NCBI GenBank assembly: GCA_036399915.1
Contig: DASWME010000013.1
Location: 1,724-65,723 of the forward strand
DNA from: Thermoanaerobaculia bacterium
GTDB lineage: Bacteria > Acidobacteriota > Thermoanaerobaculia > Multivoradales > UBA5704
Reading direction: 5' to 3'
DNA: 64,000 nucleotides
Part shown: piece by piece, positions 11,496 through 51,420 of the stretch
How positions within the stretch are numbered: the stretch's first letter is position 1
How the letters are laid out: each line of letters opens with the position of its first letter
The notes under the pieces: model-generated
Told to the model about the DNA's origin: nothing
The model's database searches: none
The model's input: the letters and a program-made list of their open reading frames with translations, nothing else
Position numbers and translations under genes: made by a program

Positions 11496-11852
11496 TCAGG
11501 GCTTCACAACCTCAGCCCGTCGGCGCGCACGGCGACCACGCTTGCGGATGGGTCTGATGCCATAGAGCAGGAGCTTCTCCGTCCAAATCCCCAGCATGCC
11601 CTTGATGTAGCTGCGCAGACGGATGGAGGCGTCCTTCCCCTCGGCGACCGCCTCGTGGTACCGCTGGGTCGCATCCTGGGCGGAGGTGTACAGCGTGTCC
11701 CGCAGGCTGCTGAAGGCTTCCGTCCTGGCGTAGGCCTTTTCCAAAGCCTCCCGCAGCGGTGCGACGCCCGCTAGCTCGGACTCGTTCTCACGCACCGCCT
11801 GCAGCAGGCCGTACCACTCGTTGAGGAAGGGGTTCTTCGAAGATCTCGGCAT
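11496..11852 (-). CDS. Hypothetical helical protein with basic tail (paralog of 11934-12347)
   Basis: MPRSSKN...EKLLLYGIRPIRKRGRRARRR; AGGAG RBS. Confidence 0.75.
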   Translation of the reverse strand: MPRSSKNPFLNEWYGLLQAVRENESELAGVAPLREALEKAYARTEAFSSLRDTLYTSAQDATQRYHEAVAEGKDASIRLRSYIKGMLGIWTEKLLLYGIRPIRKRGRRARRRAEVVKP

Positions 11853-11892
11853 GATATTCTCCTTGTGTCGATCCGGTTCCGGAATCGGTAAA

Positions 11893-11919
11893 GGGGGGCG
11901 TGCTCTGAACACGCCCCCC
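11893..11919 (-). terminator. Putative intrinsic terminator/hairpin between the two paralogs
   Basis: GGGGGGCGTG-7nt-CACGCCCCCC stem, followed by TTTA on the - strand. Confidence 0.45.
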
Positions 11920-11933
11920 GGGGGTTCAAGGGA

Positions 11934-12347
11934 CTAGGCGACAGGCTTGACGGACGGGGAGGCCATGGCGCCGGAATCGGTTCCAGGGTTCTCCCCGTTC
12001 GGCTTCTTTTCCTCCTTCTTCTTGCGCGGACGCTTGCGCAGGGGCGAGACGTTGAAGTGCACGAGGAGCTCGCTCCTCGGCCCGATCTTGCCTCTCACCA
12101 CCGAGCGGATCCGGATCGCCGTCTCCTTCGCCCGGTTGACGGCGTCCTTGAGCCGCTGCGTGGCTTCCTGGCGCAGCGCGGTCAGCTCCTCCTGGCGGGC
12201 CTTGAGGCCCTGGATCTCGGCGAGCGACCCGGCCAGGGCCTGACGCTCCGTCTCCAGGATCGGCTGCACCTCGGGGTTCCTGTCGGTGGCGTCGAGCAGC
12301 CCCTTCAGGTCCTTGGTGACCACGGCGTACGAGTTGATGCTGGCCAT
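11934..12347 (-). CDS. Hypothetical helical protein with basic tail (paralog of 11496-11852)
   Basis: ...IRIRSVVRGKIGPRSELLVHFNVSPLRKRPRKKK; AAGGAG RBS. Confidence 0.8.
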   Translation of the reverse strand: MASINSYAVVTKDLKGLLDATDRNPEVQPILETERQALAGSLAEIQGLKARQEELTALRQEATQRLKDAVNRAKETAIRIRSVVRGKIGPRSELLVHFNVSPLRKRPRKKKEEKKPNGENPGTDSGAMASPSVKPVA

Positions 12348-14037: not shown

Positions 14038-15534
14038 ATGCCCAAGTCGAGGAAGCTCTCCGCCGAAGCCCTGGCGCTCCTCTACCTGCGCTCCGAGCGC
14101 GGCTGGTCGAAAAAGGAGCTCGCCTCGCACCATGGCTATGCGGACGACAAGCAGATCTCGCGCTATGAGACCGGCGAGAAGACCCTCCACCGCGACCACC
14201 TCGAAGCCCTCGCCGCCCCTCTCGGCCACCCGCCCGAAGCCCTCGACGCCCTGGTCTTCATCCACCGCCTCATCGCGCCCGAGGACCCGCAGGAGCCCGC
14301 CTCCCCCGTTGTCGTCACCCCCGCCGAGCGCCGCCGCATCGACCGCGCCGCCCTCGCCGCCGGCTGGGCCATGGCCGACGCCGTGCGCGACGAGCTGCGC
14401 CGCCGCAAGCGCGCCGAAAAGGCCGCGGCCGACCGCCGCGAGGCCCAGGAGCTGTGGGAGCGCATGAGATCCGCCACCCGCCAGGAGCGCCGCGACCTCG
14501 TCGCCGTCTTCCCGGAGTTCCGGAGCTGGGCCCTGGCGGAGAAGGTCTGCCATGAGAGCGAGCGGGCAGCGGCCCATAGAGCCGAGGACGCCCTGGACCT
14601 GGCGGATCTCGCCCTCTTCATCGCCCGGCGGATGCCGGGGGAGGAGAGCTGGCGCTCCCGCCTGGAGGGCTACTGCTGGGCCTACACCGCCAACGCCCGC
14701 CGGGTGGCCAACGACTTCGCCAAGGCGGACAAGGCCTTCGCCCGGGCCTGGGAGTTCTGGCGGGCCGGAGCCTCCACCACTCCCGAACTGCTCGCGGAGT
14801 GGCGGCTGCTCGACCTCGAAGCCTCACTGCGGCGTGCGCAGCACCGCTTTTCCGAAGCCCTGGAATTGCTCGACCGCGCCAGAGCCGCCAGCGAAGGAGA
14901 TCCCATGGCCGCCGCGCGCATCCTGCTGAAGAAGGAGCAGGTCTTCGAGCAGATGGGGGATATTCAGGGTGCCCTAGAGGCTCTGGCGGAGTCGGCCCCA
15001 TTCATAGAGGGGTCTGGGGATAGCCGTTTACTTTTCGCTTTCCACTTTAAAACTACGAATCATCTCTGGCATCTCGAGCGCTACAAGGAGGCGGCGGACC
15101 AGCTGCCGCACGTGCGCGAGCTGGCGGAACGGCAGGGCGCCGAACTGGACCTCCTGCGGGTGGTCTGGCTGGAGGCGAAGGTGGCGGCCGGCCAGGGCCG
15201 CAAGAAGGAAGCTCTCGTGGGCCTGGAGCTGGTGCGCAGCGAGTTCACGGCCCGTGCTCTCCCCTATGACGCCGCGCTCGCCGCCCTGGATCTGGCGGTG
15301 CTCTGGCTGGAGGAGGGGCGTGCGGCGGAGGTGCGAGAGCTGGCCCTCGCCATGGCGTGGATCTTCCAGGCCCAGGGGATCGCCCGTGAGGCCCTGGCGG
15401 CGCTCGCATTGTTCCGCGACGCAGCCCTGGGGGAGACGGCCACCGTGGAGCTGGTGCGGCGAACGATCGCCGAGCTAGAGAGGGCGAGGCGCTCCGCCCC
15501 TCCCCCTCGGGACGGGCGGAGGGGCCGAGAATGA
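14038..15534 (+). CDS. XRE-HTH + TPR regulator (RRNPP-like architecture), copy 1A
   Basis: N-terminal LRSERGWSKKELA..YADDKQISRYETG; helical TPR-like body (WALAEKVC, ANARRV, LLDLEASL, LALAALDLA); AAGGAGG RBS. Confidence 0.9.
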   Translation: MPKSRKLSAEALALLYLRSERGWSKKELASHHGYADDKQISRYETGEKTLHRDHLEALAAPLGHPPEALDALVFIHRLIAPEDPQEPASPVVVTPAERRRIDRAALAAGWAMADAVRDELRRRKRAEKAAADRREAQELWERMRSATRQERRDLVAVFPEFRSWALAEKVCHESERAAAHRAEDALDLADLALFIARRMPGEESWRSRLEGYCWAYTANARRVANDFAKADKAFARAWEFWRAGASTTPELLAEWRLLDLEASLRRAQHRFSEALELLDRARAASEGDPMAAARILLKKEQVFEQMGDIQGALEALAESAPFIEGSGDSRLLFAFHFKTTNHLWHLERYKEAADQLPHVRELAERQGAELDLLRVVWLEAKVAAGQGRKKEALVGLELVRSEFTARALPYDAALAALDLAVLWLEEGRAAEVRELALAMAWIFQAQGIAREALAALALFRDAALGETATVELVRRTIAELERARRSAPPPRDGRRGRE

Positions 15535-15850: not shown

Positions 15851-15958
15851 GACGGAGCTCCCTGGAGAGCGCTCCGGCGCTGGCCCCCCATGGACCGGGC
15901 GGGCGGCTCTCCGGAAAAGGTGTACCAAACGACCATACCCTATGCGTGTTCCGGGAGG

Positions 15959-16960
15959 ATGGCGAGCATGGCCAAGAAGGGGGACCCCAACGTCCTTCGC
16001 CTCGTGGTGTCGTTCCTGCGCTCCTACACGAGGATGACGCAGACGGCATTCGCCGATGCGGCCGGGGTGGCCCAGTCCGACATCTCGCGCTACCAGGCCG
16101 GCCGGCAGACGCCGCCGGAGGAGGCGCTTCGCCGCATGGCCGCGGTGGCGGGCGTGCCCTGGCCGGTGGTGATCCACGTGCGCCGCTTCTATGCCGCGGT
16201 GCTCTCCGTGGTGGCCCGCTGGAGCGCGGTCCAGCCCGGCGGCCCTCCTCTCGACGCCGCCTCCGTGGAGCGTGCCCTGCTGGCCGTGACCCCCTATCTG
16301 CTCGCGGACGCGGCGGCGGAGCCGGAGCGACCGACGCCGGAGGCGGAGTGCCGCGAGGCCGCAGAGATCTGGGCGGACTTGGAGCGCTTCCCCCTGCCGC
16401 AGCGCCGGCGGCTGATCGAGCTATCCCTTCACGCCTCGCGGAGCTGGGCCCTGGCGGAGAGGATCTGCCATGGCAGCGAGGAGGCGGCGGCCCGTAACGC
16501 GGCAGAGGCTCTGGAGCTGGCGGACCTGGCGCTGTCCATCGCCTGGCGCGTCCCGGGGGAGGAGAGCTGGCGCTCCCGGATGGAGGGTTACTGCTGGGCC
16601 TACGTGGCCAACGCCCGCCGGGCGGACAACGACCTCGCGGGAGCGGACGAGGCGTTCGCCCGCGCCTGGGACCTCTGGCGGCGGGGAGCCGAAGCCGATC
16701 CGGGGCTGCCTCCGGAGTGGCGGCTGCTCAACCTGGAAGCCTCCCTGCGGCAGGCGCAGCACCGGTTCCCCGAAGCCCTGGAATTGCTCGACCGGGCCAA
16801 GGCGGCCAGCGAAGACGATCCGGTGGCCGCGGCGCGCATCCTGCTGAAGAAGGAGCACGTCTTCGAGTAGATGGGGAGACACCCAGAGCGCGCTCGCGGC
16901 CCTGGGAGAAGCCGGCCCCGCTCGTGGAAGCCTCAGGGGATTCCCCACCTGCCGTCACTC
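15959..16960 (+). pseudogene. XRE-HTH + TPR regulator copy 1B, truncated
   Basis: Colinear with 1A at offset 1918; CAG->TAG at 16868-16870; homology continues out of frame (APLVEASGDS) to about 16950, then is replaced by lower-GC DNA. Confidence 0.8.
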
Positions 16961-17173
16961 TGCGGATCTTGCGTAGCACAACGTTCTCTGATATCCTTCA
17001 ATAAATTCTCTGTTAGTGCTAGGAACCCACGATCCGCCTCAGCAGCAATCCAGGTATCAGGCCAAGATTCTGACTCACGGTTGTATCGTAGGATCCTCAT
17101 CTTCAGCCCAGAAGAAAGAGAAAGAAGTATGGTTGTGAGAACCCCGTTTCAATTTGCACAGCACATCGCGCCG

Positions 17174-19177
17174 ATGTTCAGCCGGCTTGCGGCGGCCACA
17201 GTCTTGATCCTCCTCGTCGCTTCGGCCCCTGCTCTCGCTCAGGAGAAGGGGAGGGGACCTCGCCCCTTGCCGCCCGAGCAGCTCCATGCCGACGCAAGCG
17301 CGCTCGGCTTGACTCCCGAGGTCGCGGCTCTCATCGCCGACACGCCGTTGATGCGGGACCTCCCCGGCCCTGAGGACACCGCCGAGGTCATCCGCCGCTA
17401 TCTGCGCAAGGGCAATTACGAAAAGTTGTCGCCTGAGCGGTACACCGCGCTGATGGAGGACACCGTGCGCCGCTGGCCCGAAAGCCGCCTCGCGCACGAG
17501 GGGCTGGCCCAAGCCCTCCTTGGCGGCCATGGCGACCCATCGCCGGAGGCGCTGCAGCGCGCCGCCAAGGAGTACCTGGCCGCGGCGGAGATCGGGTTCA
17601 GCCACGGCGAGGTGCACTACGAGATGGTGATCGCGGATGTCCTGGGGAGGACCGGAGACAAAGCTGCCCTCGACGACTACTTCGCCAAGGTCTTCTCCTT
17701 GATCGGCGACGAGAAGGAACGTTACGGTGCGTATCTCTCTTATGCCCAAGCCCTCTCAAGGCTCGGCGACCGCCGCGCCGAGGAGTACTTCCTCAAGGCG
17801 ATCGACGTGAGCCCCGGAGGATTGGATCCTTACGAGCTGTATGCAGTTTATCTGCTCGAAACCGGCCAGCCGCGGAAGGTGTTGGATCTGTTGAGCCCTC
17901 AGGTTCTCGAGTCGGCCGTCTCCACCCGCGATTTCTTCCGCGGCCTGCGCTGCCGCGCGTTAAAGCAGCTGGGCCATGACCCAAAGCAGGAGGCTGACTG
18001 CCAGGTCACGTCACGGCCTGTCCCGCCGTCGGTGGGAGGTGCCGGCTCGGTCCCTTTTGTCTTTGAAGCCGCTGAGGGTCAGAAAGGGGACGGATCCCTT
18101 GAGAGTATCTTCGGCAAGGCACACATCAACAATGCGGATGACTGCCGGTATAACACCAGCCCTGGCTGCGCCTACCACCCGGCTGATCCGAACTTCTACA
18201 AGATCTGTTACAATTTTCTTACCTGGAACCTTGCTGAGATAATCGAGAACGAGGCCTTTACCGAGGCACCAGGATCCCGCGTCGCGGTGGCTTGGACGGT
18301 GCGCGATCGCGTACTCCGTAGCAAGAATCCGGGTGGCAGTCTACCCGCCTGCGGGGGCTTCCCGGGAGGCGGCGGCACCTGCACCTCGGCATGCCCGGCT
18401 CCCAACCTGCCGGAAACCTGTGACATCCAGAAGCGCTACTGCTGCGTTATCCATTCTGGAAGCTTCGTGGACACCCACCGGTCTGTCACCTTTCAGAACA
18501 TCGACTTTGCCTACAGGGTCATTGAGGGCGGGCTCCCGGACCCGGTCTCGGGTTACCTTCCGCAAGGCGCCGGCTGTTCTCTCAACAGTTGCGACGGGAC
18601 CGTCTACTGCAATACCTGGGGCGGTGAGTTGGACTTTGCGCCTGAAGGCCCCATTTTCTTTTACGGCAACCGAGCCACCAGCTACCGCTGCCTGGGATAC
18701 CAGCCCCTCGTCTCCACCGCCTGCAGCATCGTCGCCGGCGAAACCTGCGGCGACTCGGCCGATGGCTCGGGGAGCGACAACTGCTACGGCCGTGCTACGA
18801 GACAGCGGCCCTGGGACGGCACCCAGCTTGCGTGCGGTGCAGGTTGCACGAGCAATGGCTCGATCAAGCGCCTGATCAGTGGTGCAAACCTTTTCAAGAC
18901 ACCAACTGAGACTCCGAAATTCAAGGACCCGGGAGGGAAAGCCTTCCTCCTCGAAGCTGCGCTCGAAAGCGGAACGGGAGCTTCCGTCCGCGTGCAGCTT
19001 CTCAACTCTGCCGGAGCGCTGCTCCATGATTTCGGCACCCTGACCGTCGGCTCGACCACCTACACGAGCTACGAATTCAAGTCCTCAATCGTGATCCTGG
19101 GACCAGGGAGCACGGTGAAGGTCATCAACAACGGACCTTCCGTCATCCTGGTCCGAAAAGTCACGGCCCACGACTAG
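17174..19177 (+). CDS. Secreted TPR + SleB/Hydrolase_2-like Cys-rich protein
   Basis: Signal peptide MFSRLAAATVLILLVASAPALA; TPR-like helices; LAEIIENEAF..RVAVAWTVRDRV resembles the Hydrolase_2 motif; alternative start 17129. Confidence 0.75.
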   Translation: MFSRLAAATVLILLVASAPALAQEKGRGPRPLPPEQLHADASALGLTPEVAALIADTPLMRDLPGPEDTAEVIRRYLRKGNYEKLSPERYTALMEDTVRRWPESRLAHEGLAQALLGGHGDPSPEALQRAAKEYLAAAEIGFSHGEVHYEMVIADVLGRTGDKAALDDYFAKVFSLIGDEKERYGAYLSYAQALSRLGDRRAEEYFLKAIDVSPGGLDPYELYAVYLLETGQPRKVLDLLSPQVLESAVSTRDFFRGLRCRALKQLGHDPKQEADCQVTSRPVPPSVGGAGSVPFVFEAAEGQKGDGSLESIFGKAHINNADDCRYNTSPGCAYHPADPNFYKICYNFLTWNLAEIIENEAFTEAPGSRVAVAWTVRDRVLRSKNPGGSLPACGGFPGGGGTCTSACPAPNLPETCDIQKRYCCVIHSGSFVDTHRSVTFQNIDFAYRVIEGGLPDPVSGYLPQGAGCSLNSCDGTVYCNTWGGELDFAPEGPIFFYGNRATSYRCLGYQPLVSTACSIVAGETCGDSADGSGSDNCYGRATRQRPWDGTQLACGAGCTSNGSIKRLISGANLFKTPTETPKFKDPGGKAFLLEAALESGTGASVRVQLLNSAGALLHDFGTLTVGSTTYTSYEFKSSIVILGPGSTVKVINNGPSVILVRKVTAHD

Positions 19178-45218: not shown

Positions 45219-45631
45219 CTGGCTTTCCTGTGGAAGGGGAGGACGGCCCGCGGCCGCCGCAGACCCTTGGGCCCGGCCGGCACCGGCTCGGGCTCTTCGC
45301 CGTGGAGAAGGCGCAGCACCGCTTCGATGTTCGCTTGCGCGCTCTGCAGCTCCGCGATGATCTCCCTCGCCAGCTCCTCCGGAGTCTCTTCGCCGAGGTC
45401 CTCCTCCGGGGCGGGCCGCACGAACTGGTGGATCTCCGCCAGCGCGCCGGCCGCGCCCAGACCCCACAACCGACGCGTCACCCGCAGGCACCGCGGGCAG
45501 CCGCTCAGTAGGTGGCGCACCACGGCGCGCGCCTCGGGACCAGGCAGGCTGGCGCGCATGAAAAGCTCCAGGTCCCTCTCCTCAGGATGGCGGGTTGGCG
45601 CGGATCGGAGGCTCTCGCCCGGGATGATCAT
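45215..45631 (-). CDS. zf-HC2-like zinc finger protein (paralog of 13604-13846)
   Basis: HPEERDLELFMRA...EARAVVRHLLSGCPRC..TRRLW.LG. Confidence 0.7.
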   Translation of the reverse strand: MIIPGESLRSAPTRHPEERDLELFMRASLPGPEARAVVRHLLSGCPRCLRVTRRLWGLGAAGALAEIHQFVRPAPEEDLGEETPEELAREIIAELQSAQANIEAVLRLLHGEEPEPVPAGPKGLRRPRAVLPFHRKAR

Positions 45632-45806
45632 GTTCCGCGCGATTGTGGCGGCTCGGCGGGACCGTCAAGACATCACTTAGGAGATTGGCGAACCTTTGAA
45701 TACAATACGCGGGTAGCGCCCGGGAGTGTCGCCTCCGCCGTGTCACGTCCCACACGCCGGAGGCACCGAGGTACTGTGGAGCCCTTCCTTCCATGGAGAT
45801 CGTTGC

Positions 45807-47279
45807 ATGCCGCGCAAGCTCACGTTCCGGCAGCTTCTCCTGTCCATCCTGGCGCTCTGGCACGACGTCAGCCAGAAGGAGATGGCCGCCGCCGCCGGCA
45901 TGTCCCAGAGCCGCGTCTCCCAGCATCTGAGCCGCGAGCGCGGCGGCGAGATCAAGGACGAGGACTTCGAGCGCCTGCTGGCGGCCCTGAAAGCCAAGCC
46001 CGCGGAGGTGCGGCTGGTGACGGCCTGCCTCGAAGGCCTCGACGCCCTGGAGGCGTCCGAGGACCTCACTGAGGAGGAGCGGGCCGAGATCGAGGAGGCG
46101 GCGCTCGCCGCCGCGCGCTTCGCCCGCGAAGGCCTCACCGAGGCCGTCCGCCGCTCCCGGACGGTGCCGGTCGAGGCCTACCCCGAGCCCCAGCAGGTCA
46201 AAGTGGCCCGCCGCCGGGCCGAGGAGCAGTGGCGGCTGTTGGCGGACCTTCCGTCCGAGGCCAGGCTGGCCGTGGTAAGCGTGGCCGCGGAGTTCCAGAA
46301 CTGGGCGCTCTGCGAAAGAATCTGCGCCGAATCCACGCAGCGAGCGTCGCGCAGCGTCGAGGAGGCGGCAGACCTGGCGCGGCTCGCCGAGGCCATCGCG
46401 GAGCAGGTCCGCGGACCCGAGGGCTGGCGCCTGCGGGTCCAGAGCTACGCCAGCGCGCACGGGGCGAACGCCCTCCGCGTCGCCGGCGAGCTGAGGGCGG
46501 CAGAGGCTGGCCTCGAGAGGGCCAGGCGGCTCTGGCACGCGGGCTCAGATCCCCATGGGCTGCTCGATCCCGGCCGGCTGCTCGACCTGGAGGCGTCCCT
46601 GCGCCGGGATCAACGCCATTTCGCCGAGGCCCTGGCCCTCCTCGACCAAGCCGCGGCCGTGGGCCGCTCCCCCGGGCGCGTCCTGATCAAGAAGGGGTTC
46701 ACGCTGGAGGTCCTGGGCGAGTACGAGCGCGCCATCGAGGCCCTCCTCAGGGCGGCACCCCTGGTGGAGCGCCAGGGCGATTCGCGGCTGCTCTACATGC
46801 AGCGCTTCAACCTGGCCGTCCTCTGCTGCCATCTGGGCCGCTTCTCCGAGGCCACCGAGCTGCTGGACCAGGTGCGGGACCTGGTTACGGAAAGAGGCGA
46901 CGCCATCGAGCTCAACCGCGTGACCTGGCTGGAGGGCCGCATCGCCGCCGGGCTGGGCCGGCCGCACGAGGCTCTCCGGCTCCTGAGGCAGGCCCGGGAG
47001 AGGTTCGCCGCGGAGAGGATGTCGTACGACGTGGCCCTGGCGCTGCTCGAAGAGGCGGTGCTCCTCCTGGACCAGGGCCGTGCTGCCGAGGTCAAGGTCC
47101 TGGCCCAGGAGCTGACCGAGGTGTTCCAGTCGAAAGGAGTGCACCGCGAGGCCCTGGCCGCCCTGCGGCTCTTCAAGGATGCGGCGGACCAGGAAACCGC
47201 CACGGCCGCGCTGGCCCGCCGGGTCCTCGCCTACCTCTTCCGGGCTCGCCACGACCACGGCCTGCGGTTCGAGTCATGA
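45807..47279 (+). CDS. XRE-HTH + TPR regulator, copy 2A
   Basis: VSQKEMAAAAGMSQSRVSQHL HTH; TPR body with WALCERIC, ANALRV, LLDLEASL. Confidence 0.9.
   Translation: MPRKLTFRQLLLSILALWHDVSQKEMAAAAGMSQSRVSQHLSRERGGEIKDEDFERLLAALKAKPAEVRLVTACLEGLDALEASEDLTEEERAEIEEAALAAARFAREGLTEAVRRSRTVPVEAYPEPQQVKVARRRAEEQWRLLADLPSEARLAVVSVAAEFQNWALCERICAESTQRASRSVEEAADLARLAEAIAEQVRGPEGWRLRVQSYASAHGANALRVAGELRAAEAGLERARRLWHAGSDPHGLLDPGRLLDLEASLRRDQRHFAEALALLDQAAAVGRSPGRVLIKKGFTLEVLGEYERAIEALLRAAPLVERQGDSRLLYMQRFNLAVLCCHLGRFSEATELLDQVRDLVTERGDAIELNRVTWLEGRIAAGLGRPHEALRLLRQARERFAAERMSYDVALALLEEAVLLLDQGRAAEVKVLAQELTEVFQSKGVHREALAALRLFKDAADQETATAALARRVLAYLFRARHDHGLRFES
46210..47279 (+). repeat. About 1.07-kb direct repeat of 47982-49051 (shared TPR-coding region)
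   Basis: Gapless at offset 1772, roughly 90% identical by eye; 5' HTH regions unrelated. Confidence 0.9.
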
Positions 47280-47507
47280 GCAGGGTCGGCCGTCGGGGTC
47301 CATGCCGCAGCCTGCCTCAATCTCGGGCCCAGGCTGGGGAGCGGTGTTGCAGTGGCCGCTGGGGTCCATCCCGCAGCCTTCCTTGGTGGACGATCCGCTG
47401 CCAAGCAAGGACAGAAACGTCCGGAACGGGCCGAGGAGGTCGGGCCGGGGGCCCGGCGAGGTGAGGAGGGAGGAGGCAAGGGCCAGGGCGACGAGGATGC
47501 GTTGCAT
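47274..47507 (-). CDS. Secreted peptide precursor with two GCGMDPxG cores (peptide P2)
   Basis: MQRILVALALASSLL...; cores KEGCGMDPSGHC and EAGCGMDPDGRPC; shares the TCATGA stop palindrome with 2A. Confidence 0.8.
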   Translation of the reverse strand: MQRILVALALASSLLTSPGPRPDLLGPFRTFLSLLGSGSSTKEGCGMDPSGHCNTAPQPGPEIEAGCGMDPDGRPCS

Positions 47508-47623
47508 GGGATCATCTCCTGCGCGGCGCCCGGCCGCGGCCGCCATGGCTCGCGCGGGCCGCGCCCGTAATCTTAGGTGTGGGGCCGGCGAAAATTCGCC
47601 AATTTCCTAAGTGGGGGGATCGG

Positions 47624-49051
47624 ATGAGACGAGAGCATCTGCTGGCCCGCCTGCTGCGGGCGGTCTCCGGCAAGACCCAGGAGCAGTTCGGCGAGGAAAC
47701 CGGCGTGCACCCCTCCCTCATCGCCTTGATCGAGCTGGGGAAGGCCACGCCCGGCCGCGACCTTCTGGAGCGAATGGCGCGCTGCGCCTCGATCTCCCTG
47801 CCGGACGCCGACGAGGTCCTCGGCTCGTACGAGACGCTCCGCAGGACGCCCCAAAGGCAGGGCGGTGGTGTGGAGGACCTCTTCCGCGAGATCACGGAGA
47901 GGTTCGATACCTGGGCCAGGGCTGCCTACGGCCGTCTCCTGCGCCTCCCCCTGCCGGACCAGTCGCCGCGGGAGGAGGATCGCCGCCGGGCCGAGGAGCA
48001 GTGGCGGTTGTTGGCGGATCTCCCATCAGAGTCCAGGCTGGCGGTGGTGCGCGTGGCCGCGGAGTACCAGAACTGGGCGCTCTGCGAAAGGGTTTGCGCC
48101 GAATCGACGCAGCGAGCATCGAGCAACGTGGAGGAAGCGACGGCCCTGGCACGCCTCGCCGAGGAGATCGCGGAGCGGGTCCGCGGCCCCGAGGCCTGGC
48201 GCCTGCGGGTCCAGGGCTATGCCAGCGCGCACGGGGCGAACGCGCTGCGCGTCGCCGGCGAGCTGAGAGCGGCGGAGGCTGGCCTCGAGAAGGCCAGGCG
48301 GCTCTGGCACGCGGGCTCGGACCCCGAGGGATTGCTCGATCCCGGCCGTCTGCTCGACCTGGAGGCGTCCTTGCGCAGAGATCAACGCCGCTTTGCCGAG
48401 GCCCTGGCCCTGCTCGACGAAGCCGCGGCCGTGGGCCGCTCCCCCGGGCGCGTCCTGATCAAGAAGGGATTCACGCTGGAGGTCATGGGCGAGTACGAGC
48501 ACGCCATCGAGACCCTCCTTCAGGCGGCGCACGTGGTGGAGCGCCAGGGCGATGCGCGGCTTCTCTACATGCAGCGCTTCAACCTGGCCGTCCTCTGCTG
48601 CCATGTGGGCCGCTTCTCCGAGGCCACCGAATTGCTGGACCAGGTGCGGGACCTGGTTACGAAAAGGGGCGACGCCATCGAGCTCAACCGCGTGACCTGG
48701 CTGGAAGGCCGCATCGCGGCGGGCCTGGGCCGGCCGCACGAGGCCCTACGGCTCCTGAAGCAGGCGCGGGAGAGGTTCGCCGCGGAGAGGATGTCGTACG
48801 ACGTGGCCCTGGCGCTGCTGGAGGAGGCGGTGCTGCTCCTGGACCAGGGCCGCGCTGCCGAGGTCAAGGTCCTGGCCCGGGAGCTGACCAGGGTGTTCAA
48901 GTCGAAGGGAGTGCACCGCGAGGCCCTGGCCGCCCTGCGGTTGTTCAAGGATGCGGCGGACCAGGAAACCGCCACGGCCAGGCTGGCCCGCCGGGTGCTC
49001 GCCTACCTCTTCCGGACCCGCCACGACCCCGGCCTGCGGTTCGAGTCATAA
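47624..49051 (+). CDS. XRE-HTH + TPR regulator, copy 2B
   Basis: KTQEQFGEETGVHPSLIALIELG HTH; TPR body near-identical to 2A. Confidence 0.9.
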   Translation: MRREHLLARLLRAVSGKTQEQFGEETGVHPSLIALIELGKATPGRDLLERMARCASISLPDADEVLGSYETLRRTPQRQGGGVEDLFREITERFDTWARAAYGRLLRLPLPDQSPREEDRRRAEEQWRLLADLPSESRLAVVRVAAEYQNWALCERVCAESTQRASSNVEEATALARLAEEIAERVRGPEAWRLRVQGYASAHGANALRVAGELRAAEAGLEKARRLWHAGSDPEGLLDPGRLLDLEASLRRDQRRFAEALALLDEAAAVGRSPGRVLIKKGFTLEVMGEYEHAIETLLQAAHVVERQGDARLLYMQRFNLAVLCCHVGRFSEATELLDQVRDLVTKRGDAIELNRVTWLEGRIAAGLGRPHEALRLLKQARERFAAERMSYDVALALLEEAVLLLDQGRAAEVKVLARELTRVFKSKGVHREALAALRLFKDAADQETATARLARRVLAYLFRTRHDPGLRFES

Positions 49052-50977
49052 ACCGGGGTTGCACCGGCCGTTGACACCACCTACATCTACGACGACCCCG
49101 CGGTGCCGTTGTCCAAAGGCCGCCTGACGAAGATCGCCAGAAGCGGCTCCGAGGTCGCCTACGCCTACGACCGCTTCGGAAGGGTCACCCAGGATGGCGA
49201 GCTGACCTATCGATACGACCAGAACGGCAACCGCGCCGAGATCGGCTATCCTGGAGGGGTGACCGCGCGCTTGACGCACAACTTCGCCGACCGGGACGCC
49301 TCGCTGGAGGTGCAGGCGGGGAGCGCGGCCCCGCAGGCGATCGTTTCCGGCGCCCGCTACAAGCCCTTCGGCCCGCTCGCCGGCTTCACCTTCGGTAACG
49401 GCCTGGCCGAGATCCGGAGCTTCGATCCGCGCTACTTCCCCAGCCGCATCGAAGTGCCGGGGCGGTTGGACCAGCTCTACTCGACCGACAGGGTCGGCAA
49501 CGTTCTCAGCCTCAACCGGGCGGTGGGAGCGGACCGCTTCTTCTCGACCTTTGTCTATCAAGATCCACAGTACTTCTTGACCGAAGGCAACGGCCCCTGG
49601 GGACGGCGGGCCTGGAGCTACGACCGCATCGGCAACCGACTGAGCGAGATCCCCCCGGTCGACCTCGATCCGCCGGTGGAGATCTTCACCTACTCCTACC
49701 CCTCCAACCAGGCGGGCGGCCATAACCCCAAGCTGTCACGTATTGAACCGGCGCCGGGAGGAGAGCCGGGGAGCCATTTAGATTACGGCTACGATGCGTC
49801 CGGCAACGAGACCACGGTAGCCGCAGTCACCGGCGAAGAATCGGGCCGGACGAGCTTCCTTACGTACAGCGCCGAGAGCCGCCTCTCCCGGCTCTCGACG
49901 AGCGATGGGACGGCTTCGACCGAGCTGCTCTACGATGGCCGCGGGTTCCTGCGGCGCTCCCGGCTGACCTTCTCGAACTCCACTGACTTCGAGCAAACCG
50001 AGCCCACCTACAGCTCTGAAGGGCTGCTGTTAGCTCGCAAGATCCACCAGCAGAACACCCGCGGCGGGCGAGGAGATACGGGAGCCCCACCCTCGAGCCG
50101 AGTCGTCATGGAGACGGCCTACCTCTTCTACTTCGCGGGCCGGCCGGTGGCGCAGTTGACGCGACCGCAGGCGGGAGGGGGAGCGGATACGCTCCTCTAC
50201 CTCACGACCGATCATTTAGGCACGCCTATCCAGGCCACGGACGTGGCGGGCATGCTCGTGTGGGAGGGAGGACTCGATCCGTTCGGCACGCCGTTCGTTT
50301 TCCCTGCCCCCCGGCCTCCAGGGGAGGGTGAAGACCCGCAGGAGCCGCCCGAAGGTGAAGATCAGAGCGCCGCAGCCACGGCAACGATGGAGAGCGCAGG
50401 GATTTTCCTACGCTTCCCCGGCCAGTGGGATGACTCGAGTTTCCGCTCGCATGGTTTGCGGGGAGGGTTGTATTACAACGTGCACCGTTACTACGACGTG
50501 AGCACAGGCCGGTACACGAGGCCGGATCCGATTGGGCTGGCCGGCGGCGAAAACCTATATGTGTACGTCGGCGGAAACCCGATCACGTCCGTAGATCCAA
50601 CGGGCTTAATCGACGAGACTCGCTTCCCCACGCCCGACGAGATCGCCGAACTAACGCAGCGTCACTGTGCTCGCCAGGCCATTCTGCGGAACTACGGCGA
50701 CATGCGAGAGGCAAACTGGAGGCGCTCTGACAAGTACTTCCACTGCAAAGCAACCTGCGAGGCAGCAAGGTGTGGCACATTCGGCTTCAAGGAGGCTTGT
50801 GGGCTCGGCGACTTGCGCGAGTTCTTCGACCGACTGTTGGGAGATCCGATCAGCGCCTCGCAGGCGGATCAAGCGGCTAACCGTTTTGGCCGTGAGGAAG
50901 CGGGCAGGAAACCGAACTTGACTTGCCAGATTATCTGTTCGCAATATCGGCCGGCAGGCTTGCCGGAGAGGTACTGA
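49052..50977 (+). CDS. N-terminally truncated (orphan) RHS/YD-repeat protein with serum amyloid A-like C-terminal tip
   Basis: YD repeats (YAYDRFGR, YRYDQNGNR, WSYDRIGNR), DHLGTP, LRFPGQ, YYNVHRYYD, PDPIG...NP...DPTG core end; first possible start GTG 49103. Confidence 0.9.
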   Translation, partial: TGVAPAVDTTYIYDDPAVPLSKGRLTKIARSGSEVAYAYDRFGRVTQDGELTYRYDQNGNRAEIGYPGGVTARLTHNFADRDASLEVQAGSAAPQAIVSGARYKPFGPLAGFTFGNGLAEIRSFDPRYFPSRIEVPGRLDQLYSTDRVGNVLSLNRAVGADRFFSTFVYQDPQYFLTEGNGPWGRRAWSYDRIGNRLSEIPPVDLDPPVEIFTYSYPSNQAGGHNPKLSRIEPAPGGEPGSHLDYGYDASGNETTVAAVTGEESGRTSFLTYSAESRLSRLSTSDGTASTELLYDGRGFLRRSRLTFSNSTDFEQTEPTYSSEGLLLARKIHQQNTRGGRGDTGAPPSSRVVMETAYLFYFAGRPVAQLTRPQAGGGADTLLYLTTDHLGTPIQATDVAGMLVWEGGLDPFGTPFVFPAPRPPGEGEDPQEPPEGEDQSAAATATMESAGIFLRFPGQWDDSSFRSHGLRGGLYYNVHRYYDVSTGRYTRPDPIGLAGGENLYVYVGGNPITSVDPTGLIDETRFPTPDEIAELTQRHCARQAILRNYGDMREANWRRSDKYFHCKATCEAARCGTFGFKEACGLGDLREFFDRLLGDPISASQADQAANRFGREEAGRKPNLTCQIICSQYRPAGLPERY

Positions 50978-50986
50978 GGGTTGGCG

Positions 50987-51142
50987 ATGTCGAAATCACC
51001 GCGTGTCCTTTCGTTGGCCATTCTCGCGGCGTTGGTGGTCGCGGCGGTCATCTTTACGTGGCTTTGGCGGCAGCTTCAGATCGATAGGTGTCTTGACCGC
51101 GGAGGCAGTTGGGATTACTCCGCGGGTGCGTGCAAGCAGTAG
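50987..51142 (+). CDS. Candidate immunity protein, 51 aa, single TM + Cys pair (below ORF-track cutoff)
   Basis: Own translation MSKSPRVLSLAILAALVVAAVIFTWLWRQLQIDRCLDRGGSWDYSAGACKQ; GAGG upstream; 9 nt after the RHS stop. Confidence 0.7.
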   Translation: MSKSPRVLSLAILAALVVAAVIFTWLWRQLQIDRCLDRGGSWDYSAGACKQ

Positions 51143-51216: not shown

Positions 51217-51312
51217 ATGGCCGCTGTAGCCAGCGGCGAGGGCTCAGGGCGGACGAGTTTCCTCGACTACAGCGCCGAAAGCCGCCTCTCCCGGCTCTCG
51301 ACGAGCGATGGA
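51217..51312 (+). pseudogene. Relic fragment of a second RHS core
   Basis: Encodes SGRTSFLDYSAESRLSRLSTSDG vs SGRTSFLTYSAESRLSRLSTSDG at 49817-49909. Confidence 0.8.
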
Positions 51313-51420
51313 ATTTGCGGTTCTTACCCGCGTTCGACACCTGGAAGTTGTAGGTAAGAGGGGTGGCTCGCGCGCCCCACACAGGACCGCCCCTACAGTC
51401 AGATCCGTTGTGATACCCCA

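Follow-up and report, generated by a model that had tools for sequence, protein, structure and literature searches.

A candidate RRNPP-like peptide signalling module in Acidobacteriota: a cysteine-bracketed propeptide gene between two HTH–TPR regulator genes

Introduction

What might a very small gene be doing when it is wedged between the genes of two regulators that have near-identical sensory domains and unrelated DNA-binding domains? The question is raised by a locus in a 64,000-nucleotide stretch of DNA, referred to here as the window, from a Thermoanaerobaculia bacterium of the phylum Acidobacteriota (assembly GCA_036399915.1, contig DASWME010000013.1). Here a short peptide gene, which we call P2, lies tail-to-tail with the gene of one helix-turn-helix and tetratricopeptide repeat (HTH–TPR) protein, the conv regulator, and head-to-head with that of another, the div regulator. 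A sequence-only reading of the locus had described P2 as an allelic variant of a second peptide gene, P1; the two are instead parts of paralogous modules that lie 32 kb apart on one contig, and the peptides are 47% identical. The reading that we favour, and to which we give an even chance, is that P2 may be a multi-copy pheromone that the cell exports and that two cytoplasmic receptors sense, in the manner of the RRNPP systems, in a soil acidobacterium of the class Thermoanaerobaculia.

P2 is a real gene and belongs to a large peptide family

The evidence that P2 is a genuine gene, coding for a short peptide, is of several kinds. A Shine–Dalgarno sequence, AGGAG, is found at 47516-47520 with an 8-nt spacer to the ATG at 47505-47507, and the GC content at third codon positions (GC3) of the P2 frame is 0.84, matching that of the adjacent genes. 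In a six-frame translation of the 64-kb window the pattern GC..DP.G occurs in stop-free open reading frames (ORFs) only in P1 (twice) and P2 (twice), and the single further match is broken by a stop. An in-frame upstream ATG at 47546 (MAAAAGRRAGDDPM...) was tried as the start and rejected, relatives having ATG, CTG, GTG or TTG there and the Shine–Dalgarno sequence of the ATG at 47507 being conserved. Spurious long ORFs are abundant in the window (92 ORFs of >=30 aa in 11 kb), and in DNA of 70% GC P2 could be a chance frame lying antisense to or between true genes. We regard the probability of this as negligible. Homologues of the same architecture occur on many unrelated contigs, which places P2 far beyond chance; the peptide is conserved at the protein level across contigs whose regulators are just 42-69% identical; and the Shine–Dalgarno sequence and signal-peptide layout are conserved as well. 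Together with the codon usage and the profile matches given below, this family conservation already refutes a chance origin.

Scans with Pfam, NCBIfam, PADLOC and PHROGs assign neither P1 nor P2 to a family. A word-seeded search from the alignment of the two recovered 24 more proteins, all named 'hypothetical', and 1,809 cluster representatives (clustered at 50% identity) emerged at E <= 1e-3 from an exhaustive profile search, 786 of them with E <= 1e-10. Family members have between one and four cores, mostly two or three, with the pattern [K/D]-x-G-[C]-x-x-[D/E]-P-x-G-x-[C] and with Pro-rich linkers, 5-15 residues long, between them, and 14 precursors terminate exactly at ...DPxG. The layout of a basic N-terminus followed by a hydrophobic stretch is common to P2 and all relatives, with Kyte–Doolittle values of 1.6-2.5 across P2 residues 1-17; AxA-like sites occur in P1-type members (e.g. 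AFA-AA, ASA-AP), while in P2 the cleavage site is not defined.

Translation places the two P2 cores exactly where the sequence-only reading had put them, and G-C-x-x-D-P-x-G is indeed common to the cores of P1 and P2, with the two residues after the first Cys as the main difference between them. Candidate core peptides of the P2 type are GCGMDPSGHC, EGCGMDPSGHC and AGCGMDPDGRPC(S), and those of the P1 type GCRIDPSGHC and GCQIDPSGRPHC. Other features that had been read as conserved fare less well across the family: first cores end in RC 33 times and in HC only 4 times, and the RP..C ending of the second core is just one among several last-core variants. An amphipathic helix before the cores had also been proposed, and a leader is common to P1 and P2, but P2 lacks the W-x-x-L-x-x-x-W signature of the L(L/F)DPLWxxLSSLW pre-core segment that is present in 65 of 87 relatives.

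The two core Cys residues are both present in 159 cores and both absent in 40, with only seven mixed cases (Fisher 2e-34, uncorrected for phylogeny). This joint presence and absence speaks for a paired role, the simplest being a disulfide that would close a 9-10 residue loop around the DPxG turn. Some cores have no Cys, among them GAGWDPDGL, GPGMDPSG and GGGADPNG, and the Cys residues are dispensable in family cores. There are 48 distinct core triplets following the Gly, and the triplet is the same within a precursor in 45% of pairs versus 9% when shuffled; cores are homogenised within a precursor.

The motif is also found in a different setting. Two large secreted proteins, P0212 (731 aa) and P0259 (783 aa), contain dozens of near-tandem G-x-G-[LIVM]-D-P-[ND]-G-[RK] units and also carry C-terminal VDEWDGEVVKR repeats, and DPxG is therefore also a structural repeat outside the peptide–regulator context. 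With the GGxGxDxUx nonapeptides of RTX or beta-roll proteins, which follow one another in direct tandem, the peptide cores share G-x-G-x-D, but they are separated by linkers and number one to four per protein.

The peptide gene is regularly paired with HTH–TPR regulators

The regulator alignment was run against 185,579 species-representative genomes and gave 298 hits, from which 78 loci were kept. All 78 come from metagenome-assembled genomes (MAGs) of Acidobacteriota (Thermoanaerobaculia, Thermoanaerobaculaceae and Holophagales), with several copies per genome, and the family is confined to this phylum (Thermoanaerobaculia, Holophagales). Peptide and regulator occur together from whichever side the search is begun. 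All nine contexts seeded with the peptide have an HTH–TPR gene of ~490 aa tail-to-tail with it and usually a second HTH(-TPR) gene head-to-head; among the loci seeded with the regulator, a family peptide on the opposite strand lies beside it in 69 of 78 by a relaxed scan and in two more by a strict motif scan, most of the remainder being cut by contig ends or looking degraded. TPR regulators adjoin both P1 and P2, as had been noticed from the sequence.

The tail-to-tail junction is itself conserved. At 47274-47279 the TGA of the conv regulator (47277-47279) abuts the complement of the P2 TGA (47274-47276), and the resulting TCATGA had been singled out as a shared palindrome; the two stops do form it, but it is no special palindrome and represents a conserved 6-nt stop overlap of the form NNA-TGA, seen in 38 of 71 modules, with a 4-nt overlap in five more. 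This overlap gives both proteins a terminal Ser (...RPCS and ...LRFES) and leaves no room for a terminator. A scan for sigma-70 promoters and intrinsic terminators around P2 found nothing, and candidate -35/-10 boxes picked out by eye had inconsistent spacings.

When the flanking ORFs of ~80 loci were clustered, no enzyme, transporter, maturase, exporter or immunity family proved recurrent, the recurrent neighbours being small unknown proteins and further regulators only, and the Pfam lists of the nine peptide-seeded contexts likewise hold no recurrent enzyme. This bears on whether P2 could be the multi-core precursor of a ribosomally synthesised and post-translationally modified peptide (RiPP), whose cores would be modified by enzymes encoded elsewhere (for example through a Cys-to-Asp thioether, as in ranthipeptides, or some other cyclisation), with the pre-core helix serving as the leader recognition element. 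Repeated cores with invariant Cys and Asp, their homogenisation within a precursor and a conserved helix just upstream of the first core are what such a precursor would have. However, families of radical-SAM enzymes, cyclases, proteases or ABC transporters are not recurrent within 4-8 kb in those loci, a Sec-type signal peptide would be unusual as a RiPP leader, and some members have no Cys at all, and we consider a RiPP very improbable.

The two regulators have one type of TPR domain and two types of HTH domain

The conv regulator matches Pfam TPR_12 (6.9e-12) and, weakly, HTH_3 and HTH_28, and its orthologous N-terminus is conserved across loci; the div regulator matches HTH_31/HTH_3 and TPR_12. 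An AlphaFold2 model of the latter has a predicted local distance difference test score (pLDDT) of 90.9 and ~19 helices at residues 119-465, and the regulator sequence shows neither a signal nor a transmembrane segment. Foldseek searches of this model against the PDB return LGN/Pins TPR superhelices first (E 2e-6, TM 0.54-0.66, target-normalised), with RapF, RapJ-PhrC, RapI, RapH and PlcR-PapR at ranks 12-42 (E 5e-5 to 4e-4), and sequence profiles give weak matches to the PlcR HTH (6e-4), RapI (1e-3) and NprR (2e-3 to 5e-3). A PHROGs scan found no arbitrium-type match. The architecture is therefore that of an RRNPP receptor, any homology being putative. The regulator family has more than 1,500 members, all generically annotated. 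Five homologues, P0029, P0035, P0107, P0121 and P0129, are 770-817 aa long, ~300 aa above the rest, and could be fusions or carry extra domains.

The HTH N-termini fall into two orthologous types, M..KLTFRQ.LLSILALW for conv and MRREHLLARLLRAVSGKTQEQ for div regulators. In the window the N-terminal domains of the two regulators are 18% identical and the TPR domains 91% identical at the amino-acid level, the latter being encoded by a direct repeat whose copies start at the HTH/TPR boundary and are 91.4% identical in nucleotides. The copies differ by 50 synonymous and 32 nonsynonymous codons, so both are under purifying selection. Across modules, TPR domains within a module are 47-91% identical and HTH domains ~16%, and in 11 of 25 modules the flanking TPR domains are mutually closest relatives. 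The flanking TPR domains thus often evolve in concert.

Cores co-vary with the neighbouring TPR domain

The residues after the first Cys had been suggested as a specificity code, an idea at odds with any absence of covariation between peptide and neighbouring receptor. Covariation across loci was looked for and is present. The distance between cores correlates with that between TPR domains (r = 0.41); the association persists when the leader is controlled for (partial Mantel r 0.38, p 5e-4) and is also seen when the P2-type clade is taken by itself (0.26, p 0.002), whereas that of core with leader, TPR controlled, is -0.06. For conv regulators, core and TPR domain are associated when the regulator's own HTH domain is controlled for (partial r 0.31, p 5e-4), the reverse value being 0.03. 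These results support, without proving, the view that the peptide and the neighbouring TPR domain belong together.

Modules within a genome also tend to differ, in that same-genome pairs share a triplet in 7 of 64 cases (11%) versus 18% between genomes, which is suggestive but non-significant alone. One Thermoanaerobaculum MAG has CGM, xGW, CGA/GGW, CGL and CxI-H core types at different loci. Tandem arrays of modules (regulator-peptide-regulator-peptide) are present in L012, L017, L021, L023, L057, L058, L078 and L089, the last of which has three consecutive peptide genes, and tandem-neighbour modules have the same core triplet in 8 of 12 pairs.

The same observations can be set against a reading in which the peptide is output and not signal: a secreted Cys-loop effector, be it bacteriocin-like, directed against competitors, adhesive or metal/calcium-binding, with regulators that sense something else. 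A signal sequence with paired Cys is typical of many secreted disulfide peptides, 48 core triplets would also suit an arms race, and modules are often near Rhs toxins and mobile-element genes. In P0212 and P0259 the GxGxDPNG[RK] repeats are present by the dozen, and the motif can therefore be a structural or ion-binding turn without any receptor. A pure output gene, however, gives no reason for its cores to co-vary with the adjacent TPR domain and not with the HTH domain or its own leader, nor for the flanking TPR domains to be kept alike. Versions without Cys exist, the flanks hold no recurrent immunity, exporter or maturation gene, and, judged as class II bacteriocins, the peptides have no GG-leader and no recurrent immunity or transporter gene beside them. 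We therefore think an effector unlikely.

A proposed mechanism, and what weighs against it

In the pheromone reading, P2 would be translated from the ATG at 47507 and exported through its putative Sec-type signal sequence. In the periplasm the Cys pair of each core would close a 9-10 residue loop around the D-P-x-G turn, and proteases would cleave the Pro-rich linkers or the [K/D]-x-G boundaries to give two near-identical peptides of the GCGMDPxG type. As the peptide built up it would re-enter the cell and bind the TPR domain of both flanking regulators. The near-identical putative ligand-binding domains and unrelated HTH domains suggest that one signal would thereby be read at two promoter sets. 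The regulators would act on two elements, an AT-centred palindrome and a 17-nt motif, in the control regions before P2 and the div regulator and before gene A and the conv regulator, forming an autoregulatory loop, and with the 6-nt tail-to-tail overlap of P2 and the conv gene and no terminator, convergent transcription probably adds mutual interference.

Several points weigh against this proposal. The export of P2 is read from its sequence alone. In a diderm host a Sec-exported peptide reaches the periplasm and not the medium, and neither an outer-membrane route nor an importer has been identified for it. Once in the cytoplasm a disulfide loop would undergo reduction, and known RRNPP pheromones are linear and unmodified. 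The best structural matches of the receptor are generic TPR superhelices (LGN/Pins) and not RRNPP receptors, and the locus is in no RNA run, having been found in two soil/biocrust DNA metagenomes only. The two direct repeats are 350 bp apart, and neutral gene conversion could account for their concerted evolution. As for the covariation, the partial r for div regulators is only 0.12 (p 0.12, non-significant), and Mantel permutations ignore phylogenetic non-independence, so that the correlation counts as support and not as proof. Many precursors mix different cores (e.g. CGA with CGM), so a specificity code, while in keeping with the covariation, is not strict.

The periplasmic destination invites another explanation, namely that the peptide reports on the envelope of the cell that makes it: oxidation of its Cys residues or its proteolysis in the periplasm would reflect redox or protease status, and re-imported fragments would be read in the same cell. 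The end point of Sec export in a diderm, the strongly coupled Cys pair and a conserved neighbour, gene A, with an HxxxCxxC motif as in zinc- or redox-sensing anti-sigma factors, are all in keeping with this. Cys-less members, however, sit between regulators just the same, gene A has no detectable family membership, and multiple distinct cores per genome are more typical of orthogonal signalling channels, and we hold a self-reporter to be improbable. The pheromone reading remains our preference, the effector, self-reporter and RiPP alternatives being less well supported.

Control regions and candidate operators

The features of the module and of its P1 counterpart are collected in Table 1.

Table 1. 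Location of peptide, regulator, control-region and neighbouring features in the window
Feature	Positions	Strand	Description
P1 tail-to-tail HTH–TPR regulator	14038..15534	+	
P1, 103-aa propeptide, paralogue of P2	15542..15850	-	Cores KEGCRIDPSGHC and KEGCQIDPSGRPHC
P1 head-to-head regulator	15959..16870	+	Truncated at ~residue 300 of the family; family query matched over residues 6-286 only
Gene C, 369 aa	43885..44991	-	HTH-less paralogue of the regulator TPR domain
Gene B, 76 aa	44991..45218	-	Start overlaps gene A stop; relatives in 27 loci
Gene A, 138 aa	45218..45631	-	RHLLSGCPRC (HxxxCxxC) motif; divergent from the conv regulator
17-nt motif, second copy, CTTAGGAGATTGGCGAA	45676..45692	+	Within the gene A–conv regulator control region; candidate operator
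Conv (tail-to-tail) regulator, 490 aa from MPRKLTF	45807..47279	+	XRE-type HTH and TPR; ORF open from 45726
Direct repeat, copy 1	46209..47277	+	1,070-bp repeat; conv TPR domain
P2 gene	47274..47507	-	77 codons (47277-47507) and TGA stop (47274-47276); translation MQRILVALALASSLLTSPGPRPDLLGPFRTFLSLLGSGSSTKEGCGMDPSGHCNTAPQPGPEIEAGCGMDPDGRPCS
P2 core 2, EAGCGMDPDGRPC	47280..47318	-	Terminal Ser follows; its codon TCA is complementary to the regulator TGA stop
P2 core 1, KEGCGMDPSGHC	47349..47384	-	Cys pair spacing C-x2-DPxG-x-C
P2 pre-core (pro) segment, PGPRPDLLGPFRTFLSLLGSGSST	47385..47456	-	By alignment the family L(L/F)DPLWxxLSSLW amphipathic segment, degenerate in P2
P2 N-terminus, MQRILVALALASSLLTS	47457..47507	-	Signal-peptide-like: basic residue, then 12-14 hydrophobic residues
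Divergent control region of P2 and div regulator, 116 bp	47508..47623		Layout conserved in ~50 loci (intergenic alignment)
Conserved GC-rich inverted repeat	47521..47570	-	Lies in what is presumed to be the P2 mRNA 5' leader; GAGCC/GGCTC-type inner stem, 5-nt loop
AT-centred palindrome, GGCGAAAATTCGCC	47587..47600		Candidate operator; 24 nt before the div ATG; unique exact match in the window
17-nt motif, CTTAGGAAATTGGCGAA	47595..47611	-	Overlaps right half of the palindrome; candidate operator
Div (head-to-head) regulator, 475 aa	47624..49051	+	XRE HTH (1-73), linker, ~9 TPR-like helix pairs (119-465)
Direct repeat, copy 2	47981..49049	+	1,070-bp repeat; div TPR domain

Between P2 and the div regulator the order of elements is peptide Shine–Dalgarno sequence, GC-rich inverted repeat, TAGGTGC block, AT-centred palindrome, T-rich block and regulator Shine–Dalgarno sequence. 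At the position of the palindrome other loci have AGGTGAAAATTCACCT, CTGGGAAAAATCCCAG, GGCGAAATTACGCC and similar palindromes, and as these differ between loci their half-sites change together. The 17-nt motif has just two occurrences in the window, with 0 expected by chance, and its second copy has counterparts immediately upstream of the conv regulator ORF in >=4 other loci (L017, L060, L061, L063). We infer that the palindrome and the 17-nt motif are bound by the regulators, and refer to both as candidate operators.

The GC-rich inverted repeat is kept in ~50 loci, with GGA or GGAGG in the loop on the peptide strand. Hairpins are predicted locus by locus, with some compensatory changes and a modest z-score (mean -1.3); the consensus RNA fold of the element is weak on both strands, and an Rfam scan of 45500-49200 gave no match. 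The repeat may form an RNA hairpin, or else serve the other HTH type as a second palindromic operator.

The P1 module

The TPR domains beside P1 are 45-46% identical to those beside P2. Its head-to-head regulator is probably a pseudogene, with a premature stop followed by loss of frame. Beyond the stop there is a short continuation in another frame (ORF 16717-17004, ...APLVEASGDSPP...) and then unrelated sequence, and the gene looks as if a stop, a frameshift and a deletion had disrupted it. Control regions of the P1 type (15851-15958 in the window; L006) have no AT-centred palindrome and carry instead a GGACCAAAGGACCA-type direct repeat, which in the window reads GTACCAAACGACCA.

The P1 module is followed downstream by an ORF of 768 aa (16871-19177, + strand) with a signal-like segment and a Cys-rich C-terminal half, which has no Pfam or NCBIfam family; GC is only 0.60 around it, at 18-20 kb. 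On the other side, 11496-11912 and 11934-12347 (both - strand) encode paralogous proteins of ~137 aa with a basic ...PLRKRPRKKK tail, which by eye resemble a 131-aa protein recurring in nine other module-bearing loci.

Neighbouring genes

Genes A, B and C form a three-gene operon with overlapping starts and stops, which recurs in ~1/3 of loci within the 4-kb flanks; relatives of gene A occupy the same position in 33 of 90 loci (tblastn), as do those of gene B in 27. Gene C is 26-30% identical to the TPR domains of many loci and has orthologues in L010 (53% identity), L023, L048 and L061. Scans with Pfam, NCBIfam, PADLOC and PHROGs found no family for any of the three, and the HxxxCxxC motif of gene A resembles that of zinc-binding anti-sigma factors.

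On the other side of the module, 52 bp after the head-to-head regulator and on the same strand, is an N-terminally truncated Rhs protein (49103-50977, + strand). It has an RHS repeat-associated core, and its C-terminal domain matches serum amyloid A (PF00277, 3e-23). It is followed by a small hydrophobic ORF (50981-51142, + strand) and a displaced copy of an internal Rhs segment (51217-51357, + strand; GRTSFL.YSAESRLSRLSTSDG), and GC falls to 0.64 here. The module of L009 likewise adjoins an Rhs toxin.

Relation to known peptide-signalling systems

The closest parallels are the RRNPP(A) systems, of which PlcR-PapR, NprR-NprX, Rap-Phr and AimR-AimP are examples. In these a small propeptide gene stands beside the gene of a cytoplasmic receptor with an XRE HTH and a TPR domain, the propeptide has a Sec-type signal (here a putative one) and short C-terminal cores, and several distinct modules may occur per genome, often in variable or mobile regions. 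The regulators described here, at ~9 TPRs, match the size class of NprR and AimR; Pfam and the AlphaFold2 model give them a C-terminal TPR domain, putatively peptide-binding, and an N-terminal XRE HTH; and P2 is adjacent to both, overlapping the conv gene by 6 nt and lying 116 bp from the div gene. Unlike the RRNPP(A) systems, the module is found in a diderm phylum, the Acidobacteriota, and not in Bacillota; the peptide gene stands between two receptors with a common TPR domain and different HTH domains; the cores are Cys-bracketed around a DPxG turn and present in 2-4 copies; and receptor similarity is weak, no better than to eukaryotic LGN/Pins. The likeness to LGN/Pins is of fold class only: these have a TPR superhelix of similar size and their PDB entries are complexes with partner proteins or fragments, but they are eukaryotic, have no HTH and serve an unrelated function.

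Other systems resemble the module in single respects. On pCF10 of Enterococcus faecalis, antisense and interference effects between the overlapping transcripts of prgQ and prgX make for a sharper switch. Receptor and peptide genes of PrgX/prgQ (iCF10) are, as here, on opposite strands, and their transcription collides, as it probably does in our module, but the pCF10 overlap is at the 5' ends, with divergent overlapping promoters, whereas ours, judged purely from sequence, is at the 3' ends. In the streptococcal Rgg-SHP and ComR-XIP systems the peptide gene is divergent from or convergent with that of an HTH–TPR-like receptor, and a receptor-binding palindrome before the peptide gene gives autoinduction, the palindrome described here being a candidate only; SHP and XIP, however, are linear, hydrophobic peptides that have no Sec signal and leave the cell through PptAB, and their receptors have five TPR-like repeats. 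Multi-core RiPP precursors (cyanobactins, ranthipeptides) share repeated short cores, invariant Cys/Asp and a conserved leader, but here there are no linked modifying enzymes or transporter, and a putative Sec-type signal is present.

A precedent for several pheromone copies in one propeptide, as is proposed here, comes from phage Rap-Phr systems, in which tandemly duplicated Phr propeptides hold multiple putative pheromone copies that are freed by extracellular proteolysis and act on the same receptor (PMC11343458). The Phr cores differ from ours in being linear penta- or hexapeptides without Cys, and the Rap receptor has no HTH. In the literature searched, intracellular TPR-receptor peptide signalling is treated as a hallmark of Gram-positive Bacillota, together with the phages and plasmids they carry (PMC10075063, PMC12700828, PMC12998947); recent papers place RRNPPA in Bacillota and mobile elements, with an outgroup lacking, and no paper that ties RRNPP systems to Acidobacteria turned up in our full-text searches. 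On present evidence the module would work like an RRNPP system, in a host outside the Bacillota and with a putative homology to that family.

Significance

Taken as a whole, the module may be the first case in which a diderm phylum has RRNPP-like peptide quorum sensing through cytoplasmic receptors, with disulfide-stapled multi-copy DPxG pheromones, two receptors whose TPR domains evolve in concert while their DNA-binding domains differ, and a channel set by the residues by the first Cys and the x of DPxG; for this fuller claim we would put the chances somewhat short of even. A dual-receptor design, in which one ligand domain is joined to two DNA-binding domains, and Cys-stapled multi-copy cores are both undescribed for RRNPP systems. 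If the peptides do signal as proposed, the logic of TPR-receptor peptide signalling would be extended to diderm bacteria, and the receptors could be the missing outgroup for rooting the RRNPPA family. With its 48 core triplets the family would be a natural library of orthogonal peptide–receptor pairs. It links >=1,800 propeptide representatives with more than 1,500 receptors in soil Acidobacteria, which rank among the most abundant soil phyla and among the hardest to study, and, if our reading is true, it would offer a handle on the social and regulatory behaviour of uncultured Thermoanaerobaculia.

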